Positions 1 to 58,900 of a stretch of DNA of 64,000 nt are shown here, in pieces. The notes beneath the pieces are model-generated. The model made no database searches, was not told the origin of the DNA, and worked only from the letters and a program-made list of their open reading frames with translations. The translations under genes and the position numbers were made by a program. The stretch covers positions 64,001 to 128,000 of IMG/VR virus record IMGVR_UViG_3300005288_000001. One strand, 5' to 3'. The number at the start of each line of letters is the position of its first letter. Position 1 is the stretch's first letter. Source of the stretch: a virus.

Positions 1-68
1 CCAGTTTTGGTGAGACTGGAGGCAGAAGTTCTTGACGGAGGGGACCGTGTAGCTGCCTTACTAACTCA

Positions 69-97
69 ATTATACGCCGGAGTTACCCGGCGCACAA
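69..97 (-). promoter_or_regulatory. sigma70-type promoter TTGTGC-N17-TATAAT reading out of the left window edge
   Basis: Minus strand reads TTGTGC gccgggtaactccggcg TATAAT; the spacer is itself an inverted repeat; a CCTAAATA late-type box lies just upstream (101-108). Confidence 0.55.
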
Positions 98-114
98 GTT
101 TATTTAGGGAAATT

Positions 115-477
115 TTACTTTGGTCTAGCTAACCAATCAACTAAAACAGTCAAACCACCAGGGCGCCAAGTAAGAGAAATTTCTTTGAGACCCTTCTCTA
201 CCAGTCGGCAGGTCAGCATATAATCGAAAACGTGTTTGGCTTCGTTATATGCAGCCTCGGTGTAATATCCACTGACGTCTTCAAAACTGCCAAGCAAGAC
301 ACCATCTCTGGTGACGTACTTGACTGTATTAGAAGAAGTCTTCGAGGCTACCGCCTTTGCCGTACTTTTCGATTTTGTCTTTGATGATCGACTCATATTT
401 TCCTTCAGGATCAAATAACCACTCCGGGTTAATCCCCAGCACTTCATACATGTTTGGCATGTCTTTGTACTGCTCAT
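115..477 (-). CDS. hypothetical protein (true start uncertain, probably shorter)
   Basis: ORF fills the gap downstream of the AADT-like gene; its N-terminal part overlaps that gene. Confidence 0.4.
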   Translation of the reverse strand: MSSTKTCQTCMKCWGLTRSGYLILKENMSRSSKTKSKSTAKAVASKTSSNTVKYVTRDGVLLGSFEDVSGYYTEAAYNEAKHVFDYMLTCRLVEKGLKEISLTWRPGGLTVLVDWLARPK

Positions 478-1462
478 GCATATTGATTGGACTACCCGTT
501 GCTTCGAACAATTTCATCAGGGCTTTTGACTCTCGCTTCCACTGAATAGTTGGATATATTTTATCATTGACCGTGTCCCGAAAGCCGTCGAAATTGATTT
601 CAGGCCACTTTGCTTTGAATTCCAAGTAGCGGTTAACGGCATCGCCCGTATTCTGACCAGGATAATCTCGCCCGACGAAGAGCTTTTTACACTGACAGAG
701 GTGGGTTTCGAGAGTGAAGTATGATAGATAATGATCGCTAATTCTATCGCGTGCCTTGGCCATGAGCTCTTTCTCCCACTTTGCAGCGCGCTCGCGGTCT
801 TGCGGAGTTGGTTTGTGATTCGCGTAATGCTCGCCGACGGTGTACTGTTCTGCATTGTTGAGGAAGTGAAGACCGTTCCACACCGAAGTGTTGGCGGGAT
901 CGTTGATGAACATTGTGTCGGGACGAATTGGCAGATCGCAAGTTTCCGCAAGAGCTTGGCTAAACAACCAACCAGTCATACGCCCAAACTTATGGAGCTT
1001 CTGAATCTCTTCGTTTACGTTGTGGTAAGATTGAGTTTCGGAATCGACCAAGCACGACTCAAACGCATCTTTAATTGACCCTTTACCTCTACGATCCACA
1101 AATTCCTGTAAGGATTGGACCATCTTGACGATATGTCCTTTGTTATATCGAGTGTCCGTAGCGAACTTTTGTCTGGGCATGGTTTCACGATTCCATTCAT
1201 CCAGAAGCTTGAAGTCCAGTTTGTCATAATCGGGGAAGGTTTGGTAGAAAATCCAAGCCATAGAACTCTGATACGTCATACCGAACAGGTAAGCGAACCA
1301 AAACTTCTGGTCTTCAGTCATAGGAGCGCCAGTAACACTGTGCGCTGTATCACGGTAGCCATTATTCCACAAATAATGATCAATGCCACCTCCCTTCAAC
1401 CGCCAGTCCAGCCAGCGGAAGAAGAGTTCATCACGGTTTTCGTTTAATCGCCAGTCTTTCAA
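329..1462 (-). CDS. amino acid:DNA transferase-like protein (aGPT-Pplase2 / AADT family, HhH-glycosylase-like fold)
   Basis: Motifs WFAYLFGMTY, DTRYNKG, KFGRMTGW, ETHLCQCKK and YPG resemble phage base-hypermodification transferases; C-terminus SLEDFF. Confidence 0.7.
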   Translation of the reverse strand: MKDWRLNENRDELFFRWLDWRLKGGGIDHYLWNNGYRDTAHSVTGAPMTEDQKFWFAYLFGMTYQSSMAWIFYQTFPDYDKLDFKLLDEWNRETMPRQKFATDTRYNKGHIVKMVQSLQEFVDRRGKGSIKDAFESCLVDSETQSYHNVNEEIQKLHKFGRMTGWLFSQALAETCDLPIRPDTMFINDPANTSVWNGLHFLNNAEQYTVGEHYANHKPTPQDRERAAKWEKELMAKARDRISDHYLSYFTLETHLCQCKKLFVGRDYPGQNTGDAVNRYLEFKAKWPEINFDGFRDTVNDKIYPTIQWKRESKALMKLFEATGSPINMHEQYKDMPNMYEVLGINPEWLFDPEGKYESIIKDKIEKYGKGGSLEDFF

Positions 1463-2340
1463 AAGAAGTCCTCAAGAGTATTCGCACTGTCATCCGGTTT
1501 ATCCTGCATAAACCCAGACCAGCGGAGCTCTTTACTTAGGGGAAATTGCTTACGGAGCTCACGGATGTTTTTCAGGCGCAAGCTGTAGAAGTTCATTGAT
1601 TCGATAAAGACGGGATCTTGTTGGTAATAATCGCGAACGTAGGGCTCCTGCAAAGCTCGATAACAAGCATCCTTAGTTGCAGTTGCTCGTTCGTCGGTTC
1701 CTCGATCTCCTGAAGATTGCATACCTCCTCGGTTAGTGCCAACAGCTGTTGTGGCAACAAGCCAGTTGATAGAACCAACTCCGCCGTGGTTATGAAGAGC
1801 TCGAGCAGTTCTGATGTTATCGTCTTCATGGGACTGTTCTGTTCTAAGGGCTGACTTGTCATTGACGGCTCCCCACCAGGCGCCACCGATTTTGCGGAGC
1901 TTGAATTCAGCAAAGGGTTTCCCTTGCTTGAACATGAGATTTGGGGTGAAATCAAATCCAAAAGGCGTGGATCCAAAACATCCAAACGCGTATCCAAAAA
2001 GTCTTCCCAGAGCGACTTCATTGTCACGGCTGTCCTTATCCATAATGTCTTTGTACATCTTCACGGCAGAAATGTCATCGTCCATGAAGATAATCTTTTC
2101 CCCATCTGGGAAGTAATCGATCAGACCGTTGGTGGCGTTGTGGCCACCCTTCGGTACGATGATCATATCCAGCATAGGAACAGCTGGCAACTCAGCCTTG
2201 TATAGAGGATACTCGTCCTTCGTAACAGCCAGCACAAGCTGACGACCAAGGTCCAAGTCTGTCTGAGCGCTCAGGGTGCTGAGTGTTTTCTTCCAGATGT
2301 CTTTATGACGGCCATATGACCGTACAGCGATCTTAATCAT
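1459..2340 (-). CDS. TET/JBP-associated (GREB1-like) GT-A glycosyltransferase
   Basis: N-terminal IAVRSYGR, FMDDD (DxD), HEDD and GTNRGGMQ; close to a TET/JBP gene; C-terminus TLEDFF. Confidence 0.75.
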   Translation of the reverse strand: MIKIAVRSYGRHKDIWKKTLSTLSAQTDLDLGRQLVLAVTKDEYPLYKAELPAVPMLDMIIVPKGGHNATNGLIDYFPDGEKIIFMDDDISAVKMYKDIMDKDSRDNEVALGRLFGYAFGCFGSTPFGFDFTPNLMFKQGKPFAEFKLRKIGGAWWGAVNDKSALRTEQSHEDDNIRTARALHNHGGVGSINWLVATTAVGTNRGGMQSSGDRGTDERATATKDACYRALQEPYVRDYYQQDPVFIESMNFYSLRLKNIRELRKQFPLSKELRWSGFMQDKPDDSANTLEDFF

Positions 2341-2486
2341 TCGTGGTACACCCGCATTCCGGTAGACAAGGTTTGCTCAAGAGCCATACCTTCTGTCATC
2401 TTCTTCAGTGTCTCTTTGTCCTTAGCCATCAGGGCTTCTAAATCACCATTCTTTCTGCGGACCATGAAGAATATTTTCTTAATCAT
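2337..2486 (-). CDS. hypothetical 49-aa protein (MIKKIFFMVRRKNG...VYHE), not in ORF track
   Basis: Read manually; ATGA overlap with the glycosyltransferase start; fills the gap exactly. Confidence 0.55.
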   Translation of the reverse strand: MIKKIFFMVRRKNGDLEALMAKDKETLKKMTEGMALEQTLSTGMRVYHE

Positions 2487-2688
2487 AGATTGTCCAATCT
2501 TTCACTTTTAGCTTCCTATCGCCAATCTGTTTATAGGTTCCGGCTTCGATACGATCCAGAGTTTCAACGATCTCTTTGGCCACCTTCGGGTTCCAACCAA
2601 TGCCAGGGATATGGCAGCTGCAAAAGGATCCATCGTGGCGGGGATCAAGTCTCTGGCAAATTCGGCAAGGCCCATCAAACATGCTCAT
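2479..2688 (-). CDS. small hypothetical protein with CxxC...CxC
   Basis: Overlap-coupled ORF; CRIC and CSCH may bind metal. Confidence 0.55.
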   Translation of the reverse strand: MSMFDGPCRICQRLDPRHDGSFCSCHIPGIGWNPKVAKEIVETLDRIEAGTYKQIGDRKLKVKDWTIYD

Positions 2689-2908
2689 CTGGTATCTCCA
2701 TTAGTGGCATCCAATGCGTTGGATTTCGTTCAGGGTGGTCTGTGACATGGATTGTCACACCTGAAGATGTGACCCAGTTGGTGATAAAATATCCCGCCAT
2801 CCATGGACGCTTATCACCAGGCCACACCACGATACATTGTTGGCCCTGCTGTGGCTTTTCGTCCTCAAACTTGTACCACTTCATTGCTTCGTGTAGGAAT
2901 ATGTCCAA
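2675..2908 (-). CDS. DUF551-like small phage protein
   Basis: W-x-K-x-E-D-E-K-P start and PTHWMPL end are typical of DUF551. Confidence 0.65.
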   Translation of the reverse strand: MDIFLHEAMKWYKFEDEKPQQGQQCIVVWPGDKRPWMAGYFITNWVTSSGVTIHVTDHPERNPTHWMPLMEIPDEHV

Positions 2909-3078
2909 GTTCCCATTTTTGTTTGAGGATTGAACGTTGCTCGATAGACCATCGAGATGATGGGATTACCCACAGTCATGGAGACACCTTGTGTACCACA
3001 GAATTCCTCAGTGGGTTCTGGCAAGGCGCCAACATAGTCAGGTGTAAATCCCTTTCGGGAGATTGGAGTATGTATCAA
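2881..3078 (-). CDS. hypothetical protein
   Basis: ATGA overlap with the TET gene stop. Confidence 0.5.
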   Translation of the reverse strand: MIHTPISRKGFTPDYVGALPEPTEEFCGTQGVSMTVGNPIISMVYRATFNPQTKMGTWTYSYTKQ

Positions 3079-4409
3079 AAGAAATCCTCAAGTGATGCAC
3101 CCTTCTCGGCGTTCGGGTGGTGTTTCAGTAGTTCTTCCCGGCCCACGCGTTTCTCGCAATACTCAAACCACTCCTCCGAGTCCCACATACCTGGAGCGAT
3201 TCCGTTCCACTTGTAGCGTTGAAGCGGATGGCTAGGATCAAGGCGTCGACCCTCGACGAAATCTTCACGCGCTTTCTCATATTCGTAGCTGCCCAGCTCC
3301 AGCATGCCCTCTCGTAAGTAAACAACAAGACTTACTCTCTCGGAGTCTGGACTACCGAGAACAATTGGCGTGTTCCCATGAATAATGTCGTGGTTATTGA
3401 CGAGTAGTAGGTCCCCAGGCCGTACATTGACGGCCACTCGATACTCTGGGAATACGAGGTAGCCTCCGGTGTAATTTCCATCATTGGAGAGGACGAGGAG
3501 GTTAGACATACCTTCTGTATAATCGCCCGCGTCCCGATGGGCAGCCGTCCGAAACGTTGAGTTGACCGTAATCGTCGTGAATGGAGTACCCGGGATAACG
3601 AACGCTGGATCAATACTATCGGAAGCAGCTTTTTGGTTTGCGTATCGAGCCGGTAGCAAATCTCGGAACCCTTCGGCGAGACGCTGTAGAAATGGATATG
3701 CTTTGATGAAGTCTTCATAATGATCTCGTGTGTATCCAGTTGCACGGCCGAACGGGATGCGGGGATAGCGATCAAACCATCCAGCGATACCCGAACGAAC
3801 CTTGTTGCCATAGGTCGAAGTGGAGATGTAACCTGCTACTTCCTGAACTTTCTTATGGCGCTCAGGCTTCGCAAGAGGAATAAGGGAATCAACCCAACGC
3901 TCAAAATCGAAAGAAGGATCAAAACGAGCATAAACCCAAACAGTGTGCTTACCATTCCCGGTGACGACTTCTCGGCTTTCTTTCGTTGGGTAGCGCGCGC
4001 GAATTTTGTCAATTATTTCTTCCTCGACCAAAGCGGACGTAACCGAGTCTTCATCAATGGCTTCCAACATATCGTGTTGGTAATTTGTGACAAAGGCCCG
4101 AGCAACACGACCTTCTTCTGTTGTATGGCCTTCAAGGATCCCAGATGCCAGACCGCGATTTTCTGTTTCACGCGCCGCAGCACGTAAGCCTTCATATGCG
4201 GCTTGTTGGTCTTCCGTACGGAAATAATTTTTACGAAACTTGAACGCAATGCGTTTTTCGTCAAGGGGCGAACCCCCGACCGATTGGTCCGGTATGTAAC
4301 AGTCAGTGTCTTCATTGACTAGAATGTCGTAATGTGAATCGTCGATGAATCGGCCGATGGTGTTTTCGGCTTCTTCGTATCGTTGGGGAGCTACTAGAAT
4401 TTTTGTCAT
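3075..4409 (-). CDS. TET/JBP-family 2OG-Fe(II) 5-methylpyrimidine dioxygenase
   Basis: FTTITVN...TAAHRDAGD (HxD), HGNT (distal His), RVSLVVYLRE (2OG-binding Arg); C-terminus ASLEDFF. Confidence 0.85.
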   Translation of the reverse strand: MTKILVAPQRYEEAENTIGRFIDDSHYDILVNEDTDCYIPDQSVGGSPLDEKRIAFKFRKNYFRTEDQQAAYEGLRAAARETENRGLASGILEGHTTEEGRVARAFVTNYQHDMLEAIDEDSVTSALVEEEIIDKIRARYPTKESREVVTGNGKHTVWVYARFDPSFDFERWVDSLIPLAKPERHKKVQEVAGYISTSTYGNKVRSGIAGWFDRYPRIPFGRATGYTRDHYEDFIKAYPFLQRLAEGFRDLLPARYANQKAASDSIDPAFVIPGTPFTTITVNSTFRTAAHRDAGDYTEGMSNLLVLSNDGNYTGGYLVFPEYRVAVNVRPGDLLLVNNHDIIHGNTPIVLGSPDSERVSLVVYLREGMLELGSYEYEKAREDFVEGRRLDPSHPLQRYKWNGIAPGMWDSEEWFEYCEKRVGREELLKHHPNAEKGASLEDFF

Positions 4410-4427
4410 CAGTTATATAGATTGCTT

Positions 4428-5834
4428 TTAAAAGTTGAAGTCAAAGCCACCGCGCTTCTCAGCCGACTGTCCCTTTCCGAAACTAGTCTTATCAAAGGCT
4501 GGACCGGTGTCCTTGCCGCCAGAGTCAGCCAAGTCATCTTGGGCATCGTCTTCGACATTATACAACTTCATTCGAGCTTTGTCAACACCAACAACGAATC
4601 GCTTATAATAGCTTGGATCGCCATATCGATTCTTCAATTGCTTAATCATTAGCTGGTTCAACTCATCTAGCTCTTCAGTACGTATTATAGCTAGATAAAG
4701 ATCAAGCGCGTGGACGAGGCCCATAGACTCCGACGTATCGGTCATGGAAATATCCGACGAACCAATACCACCACGATTAACCTGGGTCGCCGTCAGGATA
4801 GGAACATTGTATTCCACAGCCAGACCACGGACTTCTTCGGCAATCGCCTTAACCGTCGTGTAGCTATTCGCGTTGGCGTTCGCACGGATACGCTGCGAGG
4901 CACAGATGTTCAGGTAATCGATAACGATCAAGTCTGGAACGAAACCACGCTTCTGCTTCAGATCCTCGATAAGAGCACGGAAGTGTCCAGCATGAGCACC
5001 GGAGGTTGGATACTCCTTGACGATTAGCTTACCAGTCGTACGGGAGGTAATCTTTCCCATACGCGAGTTGAACGTTCCCTGATCGATGTTTCTAAGTTGC
5101 TTGATCGGAGTATTGAACAGGTTCGCATCAATACGTTCCGCATAGCTGAACTCGGACATTTCCATCGAGATGATCAGGACGTTCTTACCCTGCATCAAAG
5201 TCGCTGCGGCGATGTGAGACATAACCAAAGACTTACCACCACCGGTTTCGGCGGCCAAACAGGTCAGGGTCTTGTTTCGTAAGCCGATACCATCCGTGAT
5301 CTTGTTGAGCAGATCAATGTCGAACTTGATACCAGTTTCTTGGGAGTGATAGTGTGCAAAACGATCGTCTGCATTCTCGAAGTAATCGTGACCAATGTTC
5401 GTGTCAAACGAAACGGCCAGGGCTTCTTGAAGCAGGGTTGGAATAGATTCTTGGGTACGCTTCTTGTCAACACCTTCCACAATCGCAATGGAATTGTAGA
5501 TAGCATTGTATACCGCCTTGGCCTTACAGAACTTCTCAGTTTCGTCTAGGAGCCATTGCTCGTTAACAGTTTCTGCCGCGAGCCCGTCAATAATTTCCGT
5601 CGTTGTTTTAATGTCCGCTTCCGTCAAATCCTTACGATTTGCAATAGCGATATTCAGCACCTCATGTGTACATGCCTTGGAGTACTTCTCAAAGAACTCC
5701 ACTGCGGATTCAATAAGCACTCGCTCATGACGATTCTCAAAGTATTCTGGCTTTAAGAAAGGTACAACCTTTCGGGTGTACTTTTCGTCATAGAGCAAGT
5801 GGGAAAGGATAGACTGCTCAATGCGTGCTGTCAA
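4428..5834 (-). CDS. 41: replicative DnaB-like helicase gp41
   Basis: Walker A AETGGGKS, SMEMSE, IVIDYLNIC, TATQVNR, QLKNRY; T4 synteny. Confidence 0.95.
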   Translation of the reverse strand: MTARIEQSILSHLLYDEKYTRKVVPFLKPEYFENRHERVLIESAVEFFEKYSKACTHEVLNIAIANRKDLTEADIKTTTEIIDGLAAETVNEQWLLDETEKFCKAKAVYNAIYNSIAIVEGVDKKRTQESIPTLLQEALAVSFDTNIGHDYFENADDRFAHYHSQETGIKFDIDLLNKITDGIGLRNKTLTCLAAETGGGKSLVMSHIAAATLMQGKNVLIISMEMSEFSYAERIDANLFNTPIKQLRNIDQGTFNSRMGKITSRTTGKLIVKEYPTSGAHAGHFRALIEDLKQKRGFVPDLIVIDYLNICASQRIRANANANSYTTVKAIAEEVRGLAVEYNVPILTATQVNRGGIGSSDISMTDTSESMGLVHALDLYLAIIRTEELDELNQLMIKQLKNRYGDPSYYKRFVVGVDKARMKLYNVEDDAQDDLADSGGKDTGPAFDKTSFGKGQSAEKRGGFDFNF

Positions 5835-5836
5835 GA

Positions 5837-6112
5837 TTAGGTTCCACCTGTGTAAATAATAGAGTTTTTCTGCACTCCTTCTCGAAGCAGGTCCGTCAGG
5901 TGATCACCTAATTCCTGCTCAAAGGCTTCAACATCGAATTCCTCGAGGGGATTTTCGATGATATCATAATCAAATTTAAGTGCCAGCTGATCGTTCTTTT
6001 TGTCTTCAAGCAGCTGAACCTTGGAGTAACTAAAAATTATACCCGCAAACGGTCCCTCTGTAAAGGCCAAGGCCTCGATTGGTCCGTTGATGTGGCTCTC
6101 AGTGTTTCTCAT
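5837..6112 (-). CDS. conserved T4-like protein at the gp40 position
   Basis: Acidic 91-aa ORF between uvsX and 41, where T4 has gene 40. Confidence 0.5.
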   Translation of the reverse strand: MRNTESHINGPIEALAFTEGPFAGIIFSYSKVQLLEDKKNDQLALKFDYDIIENPLEEFDVEAFEQELGDHLTDLLREGVQKNSIIYTGGT

Positions 6113-6320: not shown

Positions 6321-7439
6321 TTATTCCACCTTTAGGTTAATTCCAATTGGTTCGTCTAGGTCGGAGTAGTCGTCATCCAGAAGTGAATCTGCAATGTCGT
6401 CATCCATATCGCTAGACATGATGTTACCGTTCGCTACTTGGTACTTCTGACGAATCCATTCCTTGAACGTTTCATCTGCCAGAATCTGATTCCAGAACAC
6501 CGAGTGATTCGTCTGCGCTTCACGCCAGTTCTTTTCCTCGATCTCACCAGTACCAGTGTTCACACGAGCGTACCAGCCGTTCTTTGGCTTGATAACGTGG
6601 CCGGATTCAAGTGCCATATCCAACAGACCGGACCACTTGTTAATCCCCTTCTCGTACATAACGTTGATAATGATCTTCGACTTTTCGCGAACGTAACGTG
6701 ACTTCTCAACATTAATCACGAAGTTCCAACCAACGATCTCAGTACCGTCCTTCTCTTGCTGACGACCGATAATGTAGATGTTATCTGCCGAGTAGTAAAT
6801 ACCCGTACCACCAGAAACGACTGCCTTCGAGTACATTTCCTGGGTTTGGTATGTATGGTTAACAACGTCCATCTTGATGTCCTTCAACTTCAAGTGAGGA
6901 GTGACCATACGGAAGACCGACTTCAGCTGTTTAGCACGAGTCATGTCGCCAACCGACTTACTATCAAGAGCGTCGTCAACTTCCTTCTTGGATGCCAGGT
7001 TACCAATCGAGTCAACAGCGATGAATACCTTATCACCACGTTCGATACCGTCCAGCTGGTTCATGACGTCAAATTTGAATTCTTCGATGTTGGTAATCGG
7101 AACGTGTAGCACACGAGACATGTCGATGTTGTATGCCTGGAAGTATGCTTGGGGAGTACCAAACTCACTATCATAGAAGATACAGATTGAGTCCTTATAC
7201 TTGTCCAGATACGACTTGATCATCAGGAGAAGATAGGAGGTCTTGAAGTGCTTGGAAGGACCGGCCCAGATGGTCAGGCCAGGTTCAAATCCACCATCAA
7301 GGTCACCCGAAAGGGCAACGTTAATTGCGGGGACTTGGGTTGTGATCATGTCCTTCTTATGGAAGAACTTAGAAACAGCTAGAACAGCCGTATCCTTGAT
7401 CGTTGAGTTTTTCTGTAGTTTATCGAGTAGTTTGGACAT
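6321..7439 (-). CDS. uvsX: RecA-like recombinase UvsX
   Basis: AGPSKHFKT, YDSEFG, DSIGNLASKKE, NHTY, VSGGTG. Confidence 0.95.
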   Translation of the reverse strand: MSKLLDKLQKNSTIKDTAVLAVSKFFHKKDMITTQVPAINVALSGDLDGGFEPGLTIWAGPSKHFKTSYLLLMIKSYLDKYKDSICIFYDSEFGTPQAYFQAYNIDMSRVLHVPITNIEEFKFDVMNQLDGIERGDKVFIAVDSIGNLASKKEVDDALDSKSVGDMTRAKQLKSVFRMVTPHLKLKDIKMDVVNHTYQTQEMYSKAVVSGGTGIYYSADNIYIIGRQQEKDGTEIVGWNFVINVEKSRYVREKSKIIINVMYEKGINKWSGLLDMALESGHVIKPKNGWYARVNTGTGEIEEKNWREAQTNHSVFWNQILADETFKEWIRQKYQVANGNIMSSDMDDDIADSLLDDDYSDLDEPIGINLKVE

Positions 7440-7477: not shown

Positions 7478-10018
7478 TTAGCCGAAGAAATCTTCAAGCG
7501 ATGCAGTCTCCTCAGCCGCCCACCCAAGAGGACCAATAACGGCGTTCAACGGTGCCAGGAAGGCTTTATCAAACATCGTGTCGTAGTCAATGTGCTGGTC
7601 AATCTTGAACTCTGCAGGGATCTTACTGATGTACGAAATAACGTTTTCGTGAAACGCGTTGGGCATACGGAGGTACGTATATTTGACCTTGTCTCCTTCC
7701 TGGATCATCGGATATTTGGTGTCGATCTTAAGTCGCTTCGCATGATGGTTGAAGAGCAGGGCGCCACGAACTTGGATAGGTGTGCCGGAACGATAGACCG
7801 GACTACCGGACCACTTGGCCAATCCATTACAACCACGAGGGAATGCAATCTCATTCACGTCCAACTTCATAAATTCCTGACGCGTATTCGCCACCAGCTT
7901 CTGTACGGACTTTTCGTCACCATACAGAACTGTCTCAACGGCGGAACGCAACTGTGTACGAACCACTGCTGGAGTAGACGACTTAACCAGGGCCAGACCA
8001 CGCACCTTCAACTTCGGCTTCTCATAACGAACACCTTCAGAGTCCCACACGCTGAGCGCGTAGTTCTTCTTGGCAACGAAGACCGAAACGTCAGCAAGAA
8101 CTTCTCGCTTCATGGACATCGCTTGTTTATACGAGTTCATGTATTTCGCCAGGTCTTCATACGATTGCTTAATCAGCGGCTGGATGACCTGCTCACAGAC
8201 CTTATCCATGAAGTCAATCTGGGACTTCACATCCTTGCCCGGCATCGTCTTATCTACAAGAGCCTCAAGAGTCAGGTAGAACGCGTCCGTGTCAATCGTG
8301 ATAACGTAATCCTTATCCTTCGTACCAAGAATCTTGTTCATCTTCTCGTTCATACGGTTAGCCATCCAGCGAATTGCCAGCTGACCAGATAGGGTAATGC
8401 CTTCGGCGATACGGAGATCGTAATAGCGGAAGTAGTTGGAACCGATCGCACCATAAGCCGAGTTCAGCTGAATCTTACGAGCCAGCTGCAGATTGTTCAG
8501 GCGAGCAATTTCATTGAGCAGGCTTGAGTCCTTCGTCTTCTCATACTTATCCTCAAGCGCAAGCATTTCCTTCTTAAACTTCTTACGTTCAGCATACATC
8601 TTCTCCATCAGGAACGGCAAGAAGCCTTGCTTAGACCTGGTATAGCAGACGCCGTTGGCCGTCATCGTCGCGTTGTTATCGTAGAGCCATTGAAGGTCCG
8701 TATCCTGTTCCAGGAGCCCATCCACTGTCACGTTGAAACGCTTATCCTGGATCATTGTCTCAGGACTGATGTTTGCCCACATCATAATGTGTGGATACAG
8801 ACTGTCCAAGTCGAACGAGGCGACGTTACGGTGCTTACCGACAATCGGAGGCTTAACGTAAGCTCCTTCGAACTGGCCACCCTTGCTGGTATGGGTCTTG
8901 TTCGGGATAACGATCTTCAGGTCACGGAAGTGATTGTAAATCAGGACGTCCCAGACTCGAATCTGACCAGACACGTCTTCATAGTTAACCTTCGCGTCAT
9001 AGGCCACCGTCAGCGTCAGGTCTAGCAGCTTATGCTTCGCGTCAATACCACGGACAATTTCATTGTCGATAATATTGTATGCTACGAACTTGTCCCAGTT
9101 CCCTTCATAGAATGCTCGGAAGGTATCGAACTCATCGTGGTTCAGTTTCTTTCGCTTCAGTTCTACGTCACCGATGTGGTCCAGACGATAGTTCTCTTGC
9201 TTCGGAATCGATGTCGACTTCTTATAGATTTCGATGTAATCGATGGCAGAAATACCGGCGATGAAGTAATAGATGGTCGTGTCTTCCTCAACGACTACTC
9301 GCTTCTCACGGATGACACCCCATGGCGAAATTTGCTTTGCGAAGTCTTCTCCCATCACCTTAATCATCCGACGAATCATGTAGGGGACGTCGAAGGTATC
9401 GATGTTCCAACCAGTGATAACGTCTGGATAATTATTGGCCCAGAACTTCATGAACTCTTTGAAGAGCGAAATCTCATCGGCACAGATCGTCTTCTCAATG
9501 ACAGGAATATTCTCCGGGTCATGCTCAAAGTATTCCTTCTTGATGGTAAAGTCTTTGGCCGAGAAGACATGATAGCGTTTGTGGAGGCTATCATAGAAGG
9601 AGATAAGCAGCACTTCCTGGTCGGTGGTTTCCATGTTCGGGAAGCCGTTTTCAGCACGGGTCTCGATGTCCAGGAAGTAGGTCCGAATCATATTCATATC
9701 CGGAGAACGAATGCCAGGATATGTGTCGGCGATGTACTGATACTCATAGCTGGTCATTCCATAGACGTTGAATCCATGGACATCCTTGTACTGCTCAATG
9801 AAGTTTCTACAGTCTTTGATGCTACCAGGCTTTACTGGATAGACTGGTTTACCCTCAAGAGTCGTCCACTCTGAGGTCACGCCTGTTTTCTTGGCGTCCG
9901 TGAAAAGCGTTGGTTCGAACTTGACCTTGCGCATGAATCTTTCGCCATTCCGAAAGTATCCACGTTCTAAAATCTGATTCCCGTATTGGAAAACGTTAAG
10001 GTAATTGTCTTGGCTCAT
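7478..10018 (-). CDS. 43: family B DNA polymerase gp43
   Basis: Exonuclease DIET, FDVPY, YNIID; polymerase DLDSLYP, KIQLNSAYG, DTD, KKNY; C-terminal clamp motif ASLEDFFG. Confidence 0.97.
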   Translation of the reverse strand: MSQDNYLNVFQYGNQILERGYFRNGERFMRKVKFEPTLFTDAKKTGVTSEWTTLEGKPVYPVKPGSIKDCRNFIEQYKDVHGFNVYGMTSYEYQYIADTYPGIRSPDMNMIRTYFLDIETRAENGFPNMETTDQEVLLISFYDSLHKRYHVFSAKDFTIKKEYFEHDPENIPVIEKTICADEISLFKEFMKFWANNYPDVITGWNIDTFDVPYMIRRMIKVMGEDFAKQISPWGVIREKRVVVEEDTTIYYFIAGISAIDYIEIYKKSTSIPKQENYRLDHIGDVELKRKKLNHDEFDTFRAFYEGNWDKFVAYNIIDNEIVRGIDAKHKLLDLTLTVAYDAKVNYEDVSGQIRVWDVLIYNHFRDLKIVIPNKTHTSKGGQFEGAYVKPPIVGKHRNVASFDLDSLYPHIMMWANISPETMIQDKRFNVTVDGLLEQDTDLQWLYDNNATMTANGVCYTRSKQGFLPFLMEKMYAERKKFKKEMLALEDKYEKTKDSSLLNEIARLNNLQLARKIQLNSAYGAIGSNYFRYYDLRIAEGITLSGQLAIRWMANRMNEKMNKILGTKDKDYVITIDTDAFYLTLEALVDKTMPGKDVKSQIDFMDKVCEQVIQPLIKQSYEDLAKYMNSYKQAMSMKREVLADVSVFVAKKNYALSVWDSEGVRYEKPKLKVRGLALVKSSTPAVVRTQLRSAVETVLYGDEKSVQKLVANTRQEFMKLDVNEIAFPRGCNGLAKWSGSPVYRSGTPIQVRGALLFNHHAKRLKIDTKYPMIQEGDKVKYTYLRMPNAFHENVISYISKIPAEFKIDQHIDYDTMFDKAFLAPLNAVIGPLGWAAEETASLEDFFG

Positions 10019-19532: not shown

Positions 19533-20192
19533 TTACTCGAAAGTCGAGTCAGCTTCAATCGCGATGAAGTATTCCAGTTCGCCGTTGACAGCCTTGAAAC
19601 GGCTAATCTTCTTCGAGCTAATGGAAACGTCATACGAGCCAGCGACCAGCTTCAGGTTTTCCACCTTCAGGTTTACGCGGAACGTTCCGGTAGCAGCGCC
19701 AATCTCGATGACCGACTGGTTCGAGGTTGCGTTCTTCTTATCGGATACGACCACCGACAGCTTCGAGCCGTCACCGACAATAGCCAAGTCACCACCACGG
19801 AGAACCGCACTGGTACGTTGAATCATGGCCAGGTCTTCTTGCGAGAGCGTGAAGTTGACTTCTGCCGTCGGGAAGGTAATCTTCTTGGTTGGAGTAACCA
19901 GAACCGAGCTATCGGCAGCGAAGTACTTGATCGAGTTCGAGCCTTCTTGGATCAGAACAAACTTCTCGGTGAAGGACAGTTCCGGTTCGTTGAAGAGGCT
20001 CAGGGCGCCCAGGAATTCGCTCAGGTCATAGATACCGAACTCAGCGTCGAAGGTCTCGGTCACGACTGCGGAAGCCATGATGTTCTTCTGTGCGCTGATA
20101 GTTGCGATTTCGTTACCCGGCTTCAGCAAGAGATTGCTGTTGATGCTAGCGAAGTTCTTGAAGCGGGCGAGGGTGTCTTTGGATAGTTTCAT
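19533..20192 (-). CDS. 45: sliding clamp gp45
   Basis: MKLSKDTL..FKNFASIN, FGIYDLSEFL, YFIAIE. Confidence 0.95.
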   Translation of the reverse strand: MKLSKDTLARFKNFASINSNLLLKPGNEIATISAQKNIMASAVVTETFDAEFGIYDLSEFLGALSLFNEPELSFTEKFVLIQEGSNSIKYFAADSSVLVTPTKKITFPTAEVNFTLSQEDLAMIQRTSAVLRGGDLAIVGDGSKLSVVVSDKKNATSNQSVIEIGAATGTFRVNLKVENLKLVAGSYDVSISSKKISRFKAVNGELEYFIAIEADSTFE

Positions 20193-28270: not shown

Positions 28271-28677
28271 GGATTAGCTGACGGTTTTAGAATGTCCTCA
28301 ACCAGTTTCACAGGGAGAACAAACATATGGCCCATTATCATTTCGGAGTCTTTTTCGGGCATATCAGTTTTCGTGAATGTGATATCGTCTATGAGCATTT
28401 GAGCCAGAGCCAGAGCCATTTGGCGCTTGACCGAGATCTTCCATTCTTGCTCAGAATTGTACAATTCACGATTACCACTGGCAACCTCCATACGAACTTC
28501 GTACAGATGCTTGTCCATCTTAACAGCCAAGAGACCCATCTTAGTCCATTTGGCGTAAGGAGTTCCTTCTGGCTCCTTCACGACCGCAACTACTCGATGT
28601 TGCTGGCTAAGAGTTCCACCAAGTTTGGGATCGTAAGCGTCAGGAAGGGGAAGCAAGGTTTTAGGAGTCGTCATCAT
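28267..28677 (-). CDS. hypothetical protein
   Basis: Lies between 55 and 47. Confidence 0.55.
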   Translation of the reverse strand: MMTTPKTLLPLPDAYDPKLGGTLSQQHRVVAVVKEPEGTPYAKWTKMGLLAVKMDKHLYEVRMEVASGNRELYNSEQEWKISVKRQMALALAQMLIDDITFTKTDMPEKDSEMIMGHMFVLPVKLVEDILKPSANP

Positions 28678-29320
28678 TAAGTAAGTCTTCAGGAATTGGA
28701 AGACCCTCAAAGTCTGGGTCAGCCAACTCTTCTATCACAGGGTCCTCGACAAATTCGGCGAGGGACGGTTCGCTACTCTTCTTGGATTTCTTAGGCTTCT
28801 TTTTATCGAATACCGAAGTATCTACGTCGGAATGTTGTTGCATGAATTCAACCATAGAATTCGTGAACAAGCCGTCTTCATCATGCACTTGGAGGTCAAA
28901 CTGATTCTCCCATAGCATGCTGGTAACCATCTTTCCCTTAATCGCAGCTTGCTTCTTTTCGCGCGTAATGCGGCGAACGAAAGCATAGTAATTGATCTGG
29001 GTAAAATAGGCAAACGGCTTTGCGTAGTTGTAGGGATCGTAATTATCCAAATATCGAAGACAGTTTTCGATCCCGTCACTAATCATTTCGTCGCGGTATG
29101 AGTAACCTATAAAGTTTGACTTATAAGCTAGATGGCGCGCTATCTGGTAGATGCATGTTCCAATATACTCGGAAACTTGTGGCTTTTCTAAGCCTGCTTC
29201 TTTGGCAGCGTCGACTGCGGCACGGCGTTCCAGCATCGCAGCTTGGAACATCTCGTTATCCACGTAGTGGTGGGCGGTCGATTCAGGGGGATTTTCGGGG
29301 GTCAGTTCTGGCTCACTCAT
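28661..29320 (-). CDS. 55: late sigma factor gp55
   Basis: HYVDN, NFIGYSYRDEMISDGIENC, PFAYFTQI..YAFVRRI; start MSEPELT just after TATAAT; SLAEFV may be the clamp motif. Confidence 0.93.
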   Translation of the reverse strand: MSEPELTPENPPESTAHHYVDNEMFQAAMLERRAAVDAAKEAGLEKPQVSEYIGTCIYQIARHLAYKSNFIGYSYRDEMISDGIENCLRYLDNYDPYNYAKPFAYFTQINYYAFVRRITREKKQAAIKGKMVTSMLWENQFDLQVHDEDGLFTNSMVEFMQQHSDVDTSVFDKKKPKKSKKSSEPSLAEFVEDPVIEELADPDFEGLPIPEDLLNDDDS

Positions 29321-29463
29321 AGATAAATTATACCCTAAGATGGACAGAATGGCTAGTTTCACTCCAACTGGGTAATAGTTGGTAAAATAGTGGAACACCG
29401 CTTTACTTCTACTTTACAGGGTGTCATAATAGCGGTGTGGTGTCTGAAGTATGCCGTTGAAGT

Positions 29464-48401: not shown

Positions 48402-51400
48402 TTACGTCAGTCGTTCGACTGTGAAGAATATTTGGTAGCGAGCGGTTCCAATAGTTCCCGTTACAGTTGTTGTGTACTGAGCAGTACCAATTGCCATACG
48501 AGCAATAATAGAACCTTGCGTGTAGTTCGCTGCCGCCATAGAGATAGAAGGAATGACCACGCTTCGTAGTTGACCAGCGGCATCATTGAAGAAGATAGTC
48601 GACGCCACCGTTGCCGTGCCGCTGGATACTTCCGTTGCCAGATAGTAGGTGATACGATAATCGCCTTCAGCCCATGCCGTGAACAAGTTCGTAGCACCGA
48701 TAGAAGTAGATTGGGTCTTCAGAGCCTTCTTAGCCTTGATTGCTGGAATGCACGAAATCAGGTTATCAATAGTCGTTGGCCATACAGCGTTGTTCGTTTC
48801 AACCACACCATGGACCAGATTAGGACGCGCGCCTGAACCCGGAGTCGAGATATTTGCCCAGCTGGTGAACAAAGCTCCAGTATCAACACCGTAGAATGCA
48901 TTACTTGCTGGCCATACGTTGTTGATCGTATAGTCAAGAGCCACACATGTCGCGCTGCCGTTACCGCCAAAGAAGTGAACGTTATGGAACTGGTTACTAT
49001 CACAAGATGCTAGATAGATACCATAGACCACGTTTGAGCCAGTCGCAAAGGTAACAACCACGTTCGTGAAGTGGCAGTAGTCCGTGTTGCTGTTGAGCAA
49101 TCCTGTGCAGTGGATACCGATAGCACCAGTAACGTTTGGCACTTCGATGCTGATATTGTCGAAACGATTATGCAGACTGTCTACGTTATCCACACCAGAC
49201 ACAGTGTTAGCAACTGTGGTTGACAGGATAGAATACTTGCATCCCTTGAAGGACAGGTCTTGGCAAGAACCGAAAGCAGCTGACACCACATGCAAACCAG
49301 CAGAGGCAACACCACTTCCTTCAAATTCGATACGGTCAACACCCCATCCAACGAGTGGACCGGCAAGCTTGATCATAACCAAGACAGAAGCGCTCGCCCA
49401 TACCAGCTTCGTAGTGGCAGTTGTAGCCATACCAGCCAGTGCGTATTGCGGACGTGGAACACCTTCACCAACCAAACGAACGCCACGAATGGTAGACGCG
49501 GCCGAGCTGGTTCCATCACCGATCGTAATGCTGGTCGATAGACGATACGTTCCCTTAGGAAGATAAACTTCACCACCAGATGTACCAAGATAGTTGATGG
49601 CAGCCTGGATAGCGCAACCGTCAATTTCTTCAGTCAGGGCAGCAGCGAATGGATATACCACTTGAGCCGCAGCCAGGGTAGCATATTGCGCTGATAGTGG
49701 GTGAGTCGTCCCATCACCGTAGGCACCAAAGTCCTTAACGTTGATACGATTATTCAGGTCGTTAATGTAACGTGAACTGTTAGACTTCTGTACCTTGACC
49801 CCAGTGTGACCTGACGAATCAATCTGATAGAACGTGTTCGATGATGGGCGACCACCTGAATCTTGCTCGTTTACAGCGTGACGCATCTTTCCGTTACCGG
49901 CCCAAGACTGTAGATTCGACACCTTGTTGTTAACGGTTCCCGAACCATAGAACAGAACCGCAGCGCCTTCTGTTTCGTCTAGCGAGTTTGGATTGGTGAT
50001 CGAAAGACCATCTACAGTGTTGAACTGGCAGTTGTCGGCAATAGCAAATCCAGACTTAGCGGGCGAATTGATCTGCCCACCAATTATCTTGTTGAAGTTA
50101 GAAAATGTACCAAGGCTCAGACCTGATACATTATTGTCGCCCCAGATAGACATACCAAAGTCTGTAGATGCCCAAGTGGCATTACCTGTCCAGAAGATAG
50201 ATGGATTGACAATATCGCAGTTGTTGCAATTCAGCAGATTGATACCTTCCAGCTTGGTGTCCCAAGTGCGGTGGTTAATAATCTTACCACGACCCACATT
50301 GTACATCTGTGCACCCATCTGTGTACAGTTAAATGTCGTACAATCGATGATAGCATGGTCGCTTCCGCTAACGTTTTGGATACCGTGCGAAGTGTATACA
50401 TTAGACACGACACAGTTACGTGTGTGGATATTGCTGCCACCCGAATGATAGATGCCGATCTGTTGAGCTTCGTTTACTGTGATTCGTTCGAAATCGCATT
50501 GGCTAGAAGCTGATGTGTTGATACCGAAGGCTGCAGATGCTGAGATCAGAATATCCGATGCCTTAATCTGAGCACTTGAATCTACGAAGATACAACTCGC
50601 AGCTGTGAAAGTAGCACGTTCAGCGTACAGCTGGAAGTTGCTCAAATTCACATTGGTCTTGCTGCTAATCAAGAACCACTTGTTGCCTGTAATCGTTGAT
50701 CCAAACGGAATGAAAACGGTATTCATTCCCGACCCACGGAAGTTCATATTCGAACCAAATGTAATCTGGTCCGTATAGTAAAGTCCGCCTGGTACAAAGA
50801 TGCCACCACGCCCATAAGTCGCCATCGCATTGATAGCGTCTTGAATGTTGGTCTGTAGATTCGATGTTTCAGTCTGAGCTGAAATTGTAGAATGCTTAGC
50901 AGGTGGAATAAAACGGAACAAGGAAACTTCATCACCGTTCGCCATATCAGACAGCGTCTTAACATACGCTGGTGCGACTGGGTCCGCGTGGGGAACCATT
51001 GTCGACGTGATACCAGCAACCGTTCCGGTGAATGTTGGTGAAGCTAGAGTAGCATAACCTTGCGCCTTGACGTAAGCGGTCGTGGCAATTTGAGTCGTGT
51101 TGGTACCAGTGGATGCTGTTGGAGCTGTTGGAGTACCAGTCAGGGCAGGGGATGCTAGAGTAGCATAAGCCTGTGCCTTGACATATGCAGTGGTCGCAAT
51201 CTGAGTCGTGTTGGTACCAGTGGATGCTGTTGGAGCTAGTGGCGTACCAGTTAGAGATGGAGATGCAAGTGGCGCATAAGCCTGTCCAATAACAAACGCA
51301 GTTGTGGCGATTTGTGTGGTGTTGGTGTTGGCAGCTGCGGTTGTTGAAGTTGGTGTGCCAGTAAGAGCGGGCGATGCAAGAGTTGCATACGCTTGAGCCT

Positions 51401-55958: not shown

Positions 55959-58900
55959 GTAGATCCTTGATACGAGGTACCATAGACGAGTTAGTGCTCT
56001 TCATAACAATCTTCAGAGAAATACCGTCGAATGGAACCAGGTTTGTCAGCGTGAAGTTCACGTCCGTAAACGCGGTGAACGAATAAGGAATAACCGCATC
56101 TGGATTGACCAGAGTGTAAGGAACCTTAGACAGATCAGTCGTAGAACCCGAAGAGCTCAGACGATAGTAAACTTCAACGGCTGCTTCAGTTGGAAGCATA
56201 ACGGCCATACGGATACGCAGATACGTAGACGAGTTCTCAAGATTGATACGTTGGGTAACGTATTTGCTCAGCGAAGAACTTCCGATAGCGGCAATTTCGC
56301 TAACCATCGTGATACGTTGTGTAACAGTGATAACTGAAACACCGGAACCTTGGGCAACCGTAGTTGTAGAGTTCGTTGACGCATTACGAAGATACACACC
56401 GTTGGTTGGCGAAGTACCAATTACCAGGTATGTAGCATTGTTTCCTGCGCTAGATGCACCAGCGATAGTCAGGTAACGACCAATCGGAATGCTGGCAAGC
56501 AGAAGACCGGTTGCAGAATCAGCACTGAACAGACGTCCCGCAGTATCCAATTGGATCAGGTTGTTAGACGCAACCAATTGGTTATCCAGACCAGCAACGT
56601 TCATGTTGGTTTCAGTTGGGTTATTGATTCGGTTAGAAACCATAACGAAACTGATACGTTGAGTGTCGATAATTGGAGACAACGCGTCGTTGCTACTCTT
56701 CATGCTAACGTCGAACCACAGCGAATAGTCACCGGAGAAGTATGCAATTTCCGTTTCACGGTTCAGAATCAACTTTGGAGAACCCAGAACGTTGTTGTCG
56801 TTTACGGCAACAGGAGTACTATATGGTTCACCAATGATAGGAACCTGTGTAGTCGAATTGATCGACTTACCAGACGTTCCCCAGATGTTGTACGCAGTAG
56901 CGGTCTCTGGGAAGTTCAAAGCCTGGATACATGGTTGGAACACGTCGTATTGGATACAACGTGAAGCGCGATTACCCGCACCACCAAAGTAACCTGTCAC
57001 AGTTGGAGTTCCGCTAGTCGTGATAATGAACGAATCTGCTTGCAGACCAGCTGGCACGATAAGATGCTGACGGTAGATATCCGAAGCAACGATACCAGCA
57101 ATTGGCGAATTCACGAACGCGAACGGTTGGTTGATCAGAGTGAGCGCCGCACCAGCGTACAGCGTGATACTTGTTCCTGCAACTGCAGAAACGACGCCAA
57201 TGAATTGGCGAGTAGACGTGTACAGCGTAGAGTTAACCAGAACACCTTGCGTAGCAAACGAAGTTGTAGAAGTAACTGCAGTAGATCCTGAAGTCGTAGT
57301 GATACCAGTTCCGATTGCGTACGATGCTGGAGTGATAGTCACCAGAGCATTGTCCACCAGACCGTGATCTGGAAGATGGATACGGATACTTTGTGAACCT
57401 GCACGAACTTCAAACGGATTGTTATCCAGAGTTACCAATGGAATTTGATCGTTGACGAAACGGATCAGACCTTGCGTAGGAGCTTCAGCAGTACCAACAT
57501 CAAACTTCGCGCGCCATACCTTGAACATCAAGTCTTGCGACTGGTCAGGCGTCCAGGTAGAAGCGTTTTGCGACTTGAACAGCGAACCGAGGTTAGGTTG
57601 TTCAGACACAGTACGTTCAGTTCCAGGAACGGTTTCACCCATTTGGCTAATCCAAACGATGTAGTTCTGGGTTTCGGCCATCAGAACGATAGCATATTGC
57701 GCACCGTCTTGGACGTAAACTGGCGATGGGAACTCAAAGGTCGTTGGAGTATCGGCCGCAGGAGTCAGAACACCATTCAACATAACGTTCGTGCTAGAAA
57801 CATTAACTTGTTCTGGCTTCAGAGTTACACGCGAGAATGGCAGAACCTTGATACCTGGGTATCCGTTAACAACTTCACGCAGTTCCATAGTCACTGGAAT
57901 GTTTGCATCCTTCTTAGCGAAGAAGATATCAATCTTGCTAAGGAACGCACCACCCGTGTTTTGGATGTAGAAGGTTTGAGCCAGCGGGTCTTGCGCACCA
58001 GTAGAGGTTACGCTCGTAGTGATGTTTCCGTCAGCGTCACGAACAGCCAAGGCCAGAGCACCGTTGCCAGCAAGGCCAGCTGCGGTAATTACTCGGTCGG
58101 ATGTTTCGATAATCGTACGGGAATCACCAACAGTAGACGTAGAAACTTCACCGTTACGAACCGACAGGATCGTAGCTTGCTTAGTTTCCATGATACCTTC
58201 AGCGAAGTACGAACCACGGGCGCGTGAAGTTACGTTCACGTCGTTTTGTGGCTGGTCAAGAAGCAGAAGTTCACGAGTACCAGTACGGAAAGCAACCGAA
58301 TCAGTGTTAGGGATGTTGAACAGGAAGTTCAGATCACCGTTGTTGTTCGAGATCATACCGAACGATGTGACCGACAGGATAGTTCCAGTAGCAACGTTCA
58401 GGGAAGCGTCTTGGATCGAACCAGAGAAGGTGTTACCGACAGTCAGAGTTCCGATAACGTTCAGGACGCTCAAAGAACGAACACCGTTATCAATCGAAGA
58501 ACCAACAACAACCGCAGTTGCGCCGTTAGACGTGGTGATCACGTCACCCTTGTTCAGACAAACTTGGCTATCGCCGTTGATCATACGAGCTGCTTGCAGT
58601 TGGTTGGAACCAACGTTAGAGTCAACATCGAAAGTCTTTGACGAAGTCAGAGTGTAAGTGATAGTTGTCGCTGCAGCAACATAGTTGTCAATCTTCACAC
58701 CGTCGAAGAACGGATAGAATTGAGTGTATGGCTTCAGACGCTTAACTTGCACCAGAATATTGCGCGAACGAATGTACGGAATAACTTGTGACGAAACAAC
58801 GCGGTCACCGATAGTGGTGTTCGTGTAAGTCGGAATAACCGAAGTGGTTGTGCCGCTACGAGTTTGACCAACGGTCGTTGCGTAGGTGTCAGTACGAGTT

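Follow-up and report, generated by a model that had tools for sequence, protein, structure and literature searches.

Base J of kinetoplastids is made by the thymidine hydroxylases JBP1 and JBP2 together with JGT, a glucosyltransferase of the TAGT family. In the pathways of Salmonella phage ViI (5-NeOmdU) and Pseudomonas phage M6 (5-NedU), 5-hydroxymethyluracil (5-hmU) is formed via a dUMP hydroxymethylase and hydroxymethyl-dUTP (hmdUTP), and an AADT-family enzyme then completes the base: ViI gp247 adds the hydroxyl of serine and M6 gp51 the amine of glycine to 5-phosphomethyl-dU (5-PmdU), and a Cys and a Glu are essential (PMC8989533). T-dioxygenase activity has been shown for phage TET/JBP enzymes that have no C5-methyltransferase encoded nearby, and many phage enzymes of this 5mYOX group are linked to P-loop kinases, AADTs, and glycosyltransferases (GTs) (O'Toole et al. 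2026, PMC13229309). Contigs in which TET_JBP replaces the dUMP hydroxymethylase beside hypermodification genes have also been noted (Lee et al., PMC8989533), and the post-replicative conversion of T to 5-hmU has been predicted or shown to be the priming step (PMC13229309; PMC8989533). The pairing of TET and AADT is therefore already published, and the final product of AADT-linked TET clusters is determined in neither paper. We analysed a 64,000-nucleotide stretch of phage DNA, bases 64001 to 128000 (the window) of the 172,501-bp viral record IMGVR_UViG_3300005288_000001, in which adjacent genes encode a TET/JBP dioxygenase, a GT-A-fold glycosyltransferase, and an AADT. Gene content suggests, with somewhat better than an even chance, that these three genes belong to a post-replicative thymidine hypermodification module of six genes, three of them outside the window, in which inositol would be the nucleophile of the AADT.

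The record has direct terminal repeats, a completeness rating of 100%, and a GC content of 49% and belongs to a T4-like phage. On the minus strand of the window, the gene order is gp43, uvsX, an open reading frame (ORF) of 91 amino acids (aa), the gp41 helicase, and then TET/JBP, GT-A, and AADT. The initial annotation had placed the three enzyme genes right after gene 41 and had seen neither a dCMP hydroxymethylase nor a glucosyltransferase gene between gene 43 and uvsX, their site in T4; all three lie directly past the gp41 helicase, and uvsX abuts gp43, with no gene in between. Its gene identities were also right, as seen from the PF12851 and PF18724 matches and from the GT-A fold obtained with AlphaFold2 (AF2) and Foldseek. 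The minus-strand cluster runs on past the window start with a myo-inositol-phosphate synthase (MIPS), an HAD phosphatase, and a P-loop kinase. The features needed first are the following, in window coordinates unless genome coordinates are indicated.

7478-10018, minus strand: gp43 DNA polymerase, ending in SLEDFFG, the reference clamp-binding tail
6321-7439, minus strand: uvsX
4428-5834, minus strand: gp41-like replicative helicase (DnaB_C, E 2.2e-20; phrog_19, E 3.7e-121), upstream neighbour of TET
3075-4409, minus strand: TET/JBP-family 5-methylpyrimidine dioxygenase, 444 aa (PF12851; phrog_24024, E 2.8e-133)
1459-2340, minus strand: GT-A-fold glycosyltransferase, 293 aa, a distant TAGT relative at most, occupying the variable tailoring slot of the module
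329-1462, minus strand: AADT, aGPT-Pplase2-family DNA transferase, 377 aa (PF18724)
Genome 62676-63986, minus strand: MIPS (PF01658, 37 bits against a cut-off of 27)
Genome 61703-62122, minus strand: HAD-like phosphatase, 139 aa, assigned by motifs and a weak fold match
Genome 58609-59151, minus strand, 4.8 kb outside the window: P-loop kinase (PF18751, E 1.4e-14)
Genome 48779-49618 (L016), minus strand: ThyX flavin-dependent thymidylate synthase (PF02511, E 2.3e-11)

This locus shares with the ViI and M6 pathways the AADT Pfam family with the same essential Cys/Glu pair, a P-loop kinase in the module, and presumptive chemistry on the DNA polymer after replication. It differs in the source of 5-hmU, which here would come from TET/JBP oxidation of T in DNA; in the kinase, which is of a different P-loop family (PF18751) and lacks the HMUDK helical domain; and in its partners, which are MIPS and HAD as constant members and include neither a pyridoxal phosphate (PLP) decarboxylase nor a radical-SAM tailoring enzyme. 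The published 5mYOX pathways (PMC13229309; contigs in PMC8989533) are similar in that a TET/JBP gene without a C5-methyltransferase is linked to AADT, P-loop kinase, and GT genes. However, their AADT- and kinase-linked subclass is ParB dependent (PMC13229309), and the genome studied here lacks ParB. With base J synthesis the locus shares the putative TET/JBP hydroxylation of T in DNA and a GT-A enzyme of weak TAGT similarity encoded alongside. In contrast, base J synthesis has no route through a kinase, AADT, MIPS, and HAD, and the GT found here is below the TAGT threshold and optional across the phage clade. By analogy, the system would be a thymidine hypermodification of the ViI/M6 type fed by JBP-like oxidation, within the published phage 5mYOX landscape.

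We examined how constant the neighbourhood of the AADT is by a profile search with its clade, which returned 41 viral loci in IMG/VR. MIPS is directly downstream of the AADT in 40 of the 41 loci, and the contig of the remaining one ends at the AADT. The HAD gene is present in 34 loci, TET in 31, the kinase in 26, and GT-A in 6, and the usual order is TET, tailoring slot, AADT, MIPS, HAD, and kinase. The module holds together at three genome positions. It follows gp41 in the phage described here and, in the same order, in the 177-kb contig L009; it forms a contiguous GT-AADT-MIPS-kinase-TET block between an NT5C-like gene and topoisomerase in the divergent T4-like contigs L011 and L013; and it is situated near regA/gp62/gp44 in the cultured Caulobacter phage Cr30, where TET, AADT, GT-A, MIPS, HAD, and kinase occur together. 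The initial annotation had treated the GT and the AADT as the defining pair, with separate sugar and amino acid branches or with the AADT acting on the sugar. The counts do not support this view, as the constant partners of the AADT are MIPS, HAD, and the kinase. With these partners, the nucleophile is more likely to be inositol than an amino acid.

The AADT matches PF18724 with an E value of 1.6e-22 (80.8 bits against a cut-off of 26.2). It is 24% identical to gp247 of Salmonella phage ViI, and its invariant residues E252 and C256 align with that protein; a PDB sequence search gave chance matches only. The initial annotation had named an ordinary glycosylase at this position as an outcome that would contradict it, but the protein retains the active-site Glu and Cys on which ViI gp247 and M6 gp51 depend. 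The use of the serine hydroxyl by ViI gp247 is a precedent for a hydroxyl nucleophile.

The MIPS protein aligns with Ino1 of Mycobacterium tuberculosis (1gr0) over residues 11-395 with an E value of 3.8e-53, and it conserves the residues aligned to D197, K284, D310, and K346, which we take to be the catalytic residues of Ino1. In the 139-aa HAD protein, the motifs DIDGV, TGRS, K73, and FEDD are invariant in 14 homologues; the AF2 model has a pLDDT of 89, and there is a match to phrog_415 (E 6e-6) and no sequence match in the PDB. The arrangement resembles bacterial inositol synthesis by Ino1 and inositol monophosphatase in Actinobacteria, as the MIPS is homologous to Ino1 and a phosphatase gene comes next. 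It differs in that the phosphatase is a minimal capless HAD protein resembling the T4 Pnkp domain rather than a member of the IMPase family, and in that the pair is embedded in a DNA modification operon. Most Proteobacteria are not known to make inositol, which would explain why synthesis genes are carried by the phage. The initial annotation had reported no hmU kinase. This remains correct for the window, and HMUDK_hel (PF18723) has no match anywhere in the genome, but it does not extend to the genome as a whole, where the PF18751 kinase of the module is encoded beyond the window start. We do not use the name 5-HMUDK for the kinase because it has no BLASTP similarity to a true HMUDK.

The putative source of 5-hmU is the TET/JBP enzyme. 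Its residues 229-367 match Tet_JBP (PF12851) with an E value of 1.1e-23 (83.7 bits against a cut-off of 34.9), and H291, D293, H344, and R358 are invariant across six homologues; these residues presumably represent the HxD...H iron-binding triad and the distal Arg for 2-oxoglutarate, as is general in the superfamily. An Atlas search with residues 1-228 returned TET clusters only, below 0.9, with no sign of a separate N-terminal domain type. Searches of the whole 172.5-kb genome found no member of the ThyA/dCMP- or dUMP-hydroxymethylase family, no C5 DNA methylase, and no ParB (PF02195) at E values up to 1. The absence of a cytosine methyltransferase, which the initial annotation had reported for the window, thus extends to the complete genome. 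ThyX is the sole thymidylate synthase of the phage. The presence of ThyX and the absence of the ThyA/hydroxymethylase family indicate that the phage makes dTMP and incorporates T, and in a genome with no hydroxymethylase or C5-methyltransferase, the action of TET/JBP on T in DNA is the only evident route to a hydroxymethylpyrimidine. These results agree with the earlier proposal that the modification is post-replicative and that hmU made in DNA by TET feeds the AADT. The enzyme is probably a ParB-independent thymine dioxygenase producing 5-hmU in DNA.

From homology and gene context, we propose the following pathway. ThyX would supply dTMP, and the genome would be replicated with ordinary T. 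Thymine in DNA would then be hydroxylated to 5-hmU by the TET/JBP enzyme, and the P-loop kinase would phosphorylate the hydroxymethyl group to give 5-phosphomethyl-dU, the role that 5-HMUDK has in ViI and M6. The Cys/Glu pair of the AADT would expel the phosphate and add a nucleophile at the C5 methylene. This nucleophile would be a hydroxyl of myo-inositol, or an inositol phosphate that is trimmed afterwards, and the product would be 5-(inosityl-O-methyl)-dU. For its supply, MIPS would act on glucose-6-phosphate, with the HAD protein removing the phosphate before or after the transfer. Finally, the GT-A enzyme would add a sugar to the inositol or to 5-hmU that has escaped phosphorylation, the latter giving a base-J-like side product. 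A variant in which MIPS cyclises DNA-bound glucose-6-phosphate in situ was rejected, because MIPS lacks a clamp tail and its phosphatase partner is present even in clusters without a GT.

The three DNA-acting enzymes of the window share their extreme C terminus with the replicative polymerase. The tails are SLEDFFG in gp43, SLEDFF in TET, TLEDFF in GT, and SLEDFF in AADT, and ends of the form LEDF[FM] occur on only 5 of 264 ORFs, namely, these four and one 71-aa ORF. The positions of the tails and of the sliding clamp are as follows.

3078-3092, minus strand: LEDFF tail of TET, a candidate gp45-binding epitope
1462-1476, minus strand: LEDFF tail of GT, the codons of which also carry a GAGGA run
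332-346, minus strand: LEDFF tail of AADT, matching the gp43 tail
19533-20192, minus strand: gp45 sliding clamp (phrog_223, E 6e-73)

In T4, gp43, gp55, and gp33 bind gp45 through acidic/hydrophobic C termini that can replace one another (Geiduschek and Kassavetis 2010, PMC2988020). The tails described here are likewise short, acidic/hydrophobic, and placed at the extreme C terminus; they are identical to that of the phage's own polymerase and are modelled in the hydrophobic pocket of the clamp. However, the named T4 ligands are the clamp loader and the gp43, gp55, and gp33 tails (PMC2988020), whereas the carriers here are putative base-modifying enzymes. The tails co-vary with the local gp43: the Cr30 polymerase ends in DLSSLF and its GT in DLSKLF, the polymerase of Stenotrophomonas phage DLP6 ends in TLDSFF and its TET in TLGDFF, and the L009 tails are DLSDFF, SLEEFF, and SLEDLF. 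Across the AADT loci, such a tail is present in 9/9 gp43 proteins, about 19/28 TET enzymes, and 14/20 slot enzymes, compared to 1/38 MIPS and 0/29 HAD proteins.

The gp45 trimer modelled together with residues 256-293 of the GT gave an ipSAE of 0.61, compared to 0.15 for the best of three controls; the mark applied to this score is reached by 58/80 solved complexes and 2/110 mismatched pairs. Between runs, 58% or more of the contacts were shared, and the partner pLDDT was 42 or higher. In the model, L289 and F292 of the GT sit in a pocket formed by clamp residues 32-39, 102-108, 194-196, and 209-215. A like complex, the RB69 clamp with its polymerase peptide, has already been solved, so that the model may have passed through likeness rather than binding. 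On this evidence, TET, GT, and AADT probably ride the gp45 sliding clamp behind the fork. That the DNA-acting enzymes carry the tail and MIPS and HAD do not is in line with the roles proposed for them, with the untailed kinase as a loose end. The nearest analogy for clamp-tailed modifying enzymes is the docking of DNMT1 on PCNA in eukaryotes.

Other carriers of such tails, or their relatives, were observed as well. The 71-aa ORF, located 20.7 kb ahead of the window start (genome 43071-43286, minus strand), ends in GDLEDFM; its product may dock on gp45 as a late-transcription co-activator of the gp33 type. In the gp55 homologue (28661-29398 in the window), an acidic EDLL...DDDS tail takes the place of LEDF[FM]. 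The TET of DLP6 (KU682439; L002 7001-8347) is 44% identical to the one described here, has the tail TLGDFFV, and is annotated as an SNF2 DNA repair protein. DLP6 is absent from the tblastn matches for MIPS and GT-A and may be a TET-only variant.

An alternative is that 5-hmU receives two parallel decorations, with the GT-A enzyme making a base-J-like sugar-hmU, the AADT adding an amino acid or amine, and MIPS and HAD being unrelated neighbours. We regard this as unlikely. The GT matches TAGT (PF20691) below threshold (E 0.0021, 18.5 bits against 27.5). Ten of its 18 homologues also match TAGT, with E values up to 0.01 and a best value of 2.4e-6; no other GT family was matched among the 18, and a PDB sequence search with the GT gave no match. 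The AF2 model, built on the alignment with these homologues, has a pLDDT of 90.1, Foldseek matches TarP, TarS, and RmlT with a probability of 1.0 and a TM score of about 0.45, and the residues D87-D88-D89 (DxD motif) are invariant. As judged from its sequence, the enzyme is a distant TAGT relative at most. The characterised TAGT member glucosylates 5-hmU directly, and TAGT, the family of the base J glucosyltransferase, is the sole Pfam signal of the GT family; this favours a base-J-like branch over glycosylation of inositol. The TET gene is 0.7 kb upstream of the GT gene, and the clamp-binding-type tail of the GT suggests that it acts on DNA. The characterised AADTs, moreover, use serine or glycine (PMC8989533).

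However, parallel decoration leaves unexplained that MIPS follows the AADT clade in 40/41 loci and at three genome positions, and genes for amino acid tailoring, such as those of a PLP decarboxylase or a radical-SAM enzyme, are absent from the cluster. The presence of GT-A in just 6/41 loci also argues against a GT branch as a defining part of the system and makes the enzyme an optional occupant of the slot between TET and AADT. This slot holds GT-A here and in Cr30, L009, L011, and L013; elsewhere it holds a GT-B-like protein of 381-385 aa or an FkbM-type O-methyltransferase. Such a range of hydroxyl-modifying enzymes favours the hydroxyls of inositol as the acceptor of the GT. The most distant GT-A homologue (31% identity) was observed at L012 8812-10882 in a non-T4-like phage, directly after a GT4-like protein and RecA, with no TET, AADT, or MIPS within 10 kb. 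The GT family is therefore not confined to the TET-AADT-MIPS module.

Inositol as the AADT nucleophile also has to be weighed against an indirect role of MIPS and HAD, or none. The pair might provide a donor or cofactor derived from a cyclitol or alter the inositol metabolism of the host, or it might share its location with the AADT only through the variable replication-module region of T4-like phages, and the AADT product would then not be an inositol adduct. To this we assign a low probability, slightly below that of parallel decoration. MIPS relatives occur in at least 498 viral contigs, and contexts were counted for the 80 best. All 80 are inside DNA modification clusters (55 with HMUDK, 16 with TET/AADT, 4 with FolE/DpdA/QueC, and 5 cut off right after MIPS), and the HAD gene follows MIPS in at least 70 of them. 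The pair thus accompanies three chemically different clusters, TET/AADT, HMUDK/phrog_13881, and DpdA/QueC, which is what an indirect role would lead one to expect. The lack of clamp tails on MIPS and HAD and the treatment of MIPS as a bacterial-type accessory gene in one phage paper (PMC9025141) are in line with this. MIPS-HAD also occurs in 7-deazaguanine clusters, as would be expected from a broader function or from common residence in the variable replication-module region, and this counts against a role specific to the AADT. However, MIPS is within the modification clusters in 80/80 of the best loci and not merely beside them. It is flanked by FolE and QueC, by dCMP deaminase and HMUDK, or by AADT and the kinase, and the module shifts as a block between genome positions.

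The commonest of these contexts (55 of the 80 best, e.g., L179 8482-14966) comprises a ThyA-family enzyme, dCMP deaminase, MIPS, HAD, a true 5-hmU DNA kinase (PF18723), a 326-aa phrog_13881 protein, and a C5-methylase-like protein. It looks like a pre-replicative-hmU version of the inositol-linked pathway. The phrog_13881 protein is fused to the kinase in phrog_17781; as an AADT, this 326-aa partner of HMUDK was not detectable by hhalign (probability 0.2). In Stenotrophomonas phage Moby (MN095772; L008 6201-11615), FolE, MIPS, HAD, QueC, a DpdA-like protein, and QueE are encoded between uvsX and gp41, and similar loci are L134, L162, L166, and L174. This arrangement hints that inositol may be attached to a deazaguanine base as well, or at a wider role of MIPS-HAD. 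Among cultured phages, Ralstonia phage RP13 (LC554890; L007 3243-4136 and 9004-10938) has the MIPS nearest to the one described here (60% identity), with HAD downstream. An AADT-like region is found within a 590-aa ORF of RP13, 5 kb upstream of MIPS, and no TET was found there by tblastn.

A third reading, that the dioxygenase acts on 5-methylcytosine (5mC) laid down by the host and that the pathway decorates 5-hydroxymethylcytosine rather than 5-hmU, is very improbable: some phage TET enzymes are indeed 5mC dioxygenases linked to glycosyltransferases (bioRxiv 10.1101/2023.12.21.572611), and the substrate is not fixed by sequence alone, but no C5-methyltransferase is encoded by the phage, the known AADT chemistry is confined to 5-hmU (PMC8989533), and 5mYOX enzymes without a neighbouring C5-methyltransferase, or linked to AADTs and kinases, are classed as or shown to be T-dioxygenases (PMC13229309).

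Several further points weigh against a module that attaches inositol to thymidine. Both the DNA modification and the attachment of inositol are read from gene content and computation, and all characterised AADTs use amino acids. The best fold match of the HAD protein, to the 3'-phosphatase domain of T4 Pnkp, is weak (E 3e-3, TM 0.53), and the protein has no Pfam match. The kinase of the module is not a canonical 5-HMUDK, with neither a PF18723 match nor BLASTP similarity to a true HMUDK, and it has no clamp tail, so that it could act on a small molecule.

Should inositol nevertheless be the nucleophile, 5-(inosityl-O-methyl)uracil would be present in virion DNA not only of the phage described here, where it would be further glycosylated, but also of Cr30 and hundreds of uncultured T4-like phages. 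It would be installed by a clamp-tethered dioxygenase, transferase, and glycosyltransferase travelling with the fork. We offer this as a tentative prediction, with a probability somewhat short of even. The cultured phage Cr30 carries the whole module, so the chemistry is directly checkable. However, inosityl-methyl-dU has the same mass as its isomer, the base J nucleoside, and mass alone cannot distinguish the product.

The features that go beyond what is in print are the near-obligate MIPS-HAD partner of the AADT clade, the non-canonical kinase, and the polymerase-type tails on DNA-acting enzymes. The main texts of PMC13229309 and PMC8989533 make no mention of inositol genes or sliding-clamp tails, and we found no literature report of an inositol link or of clamp tails on such enzymes. 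In the full-text literature, with most subscription journals outside the coverage, there was no paper linking inositol to DNA modification, and inositol came up only in passing, in the name of a structural homologue. Whether a phage escapes a given restriction or CRISPR defence depends on the hypermodifications of its DNA, which have also yielded useful enzymes. The known classes carry sugars, amino acids, and polyamines; a cyclitol on thymine would, if confirmed, be a new class of natural DNA base, and it would widen the substrate range of AADTs from amino acids to polyols. The near-obligate AADT-MIPS-HAD linkage points to a concrete candidate substrate. With the polymerase-type tail in common, the modifying enzymes could join the clamp-bound set, which suggests a way for post-replicative modification to keep up with T4-type replication.

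The remaining observations concern the phage and the surroundings of the module. Megablast of window positions 1-6000 against 50,697 phage records gave no match, and the nearest cultured relatives of the phage are detectable at the protein level only. About 2.5 kb beyond the module kinase, a 194-aa protein (L003 11552-12136; genome 55552-56136, minus strand) has no Pfam match and a weak match (E 5e-9) to phrog_395, which carries a cytidyltransferase annotation. Three small ORFs are situated between TET and GT, and a promoter-like sequence precedes the cluster.

2881-3078, minus strand: ORF of 65 aa from the ORF list, with no Pfam or PHROG match and not conserved among relatives
2675-2908, minus strand: ORF of 77 aa, with a DUF551 match (PF04448, E 1.9e-4, 22.7 bits against a cut-off of 22)
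2479-2688, minus strand: ORF of 69 aa from the ORF list, with no family match in the Pfam and PHROG searches
4557-4585, minus strand: sigma-70 consensus of TTGACA, 17 nucleotides (nt), and TATAAT (12/12 positions), as a consensus match only

The sigma-70 consensus is about 150 nt upstream of the TET start, within the 3' end of gene 41. As consensus matches only, the TTG start of the AADT overlaps the GT stop (TTGA), and a Shine-Dalgarno-like GAGGA run is found 9 nt before the AADT start, inside the LEDFF codons of the GT.

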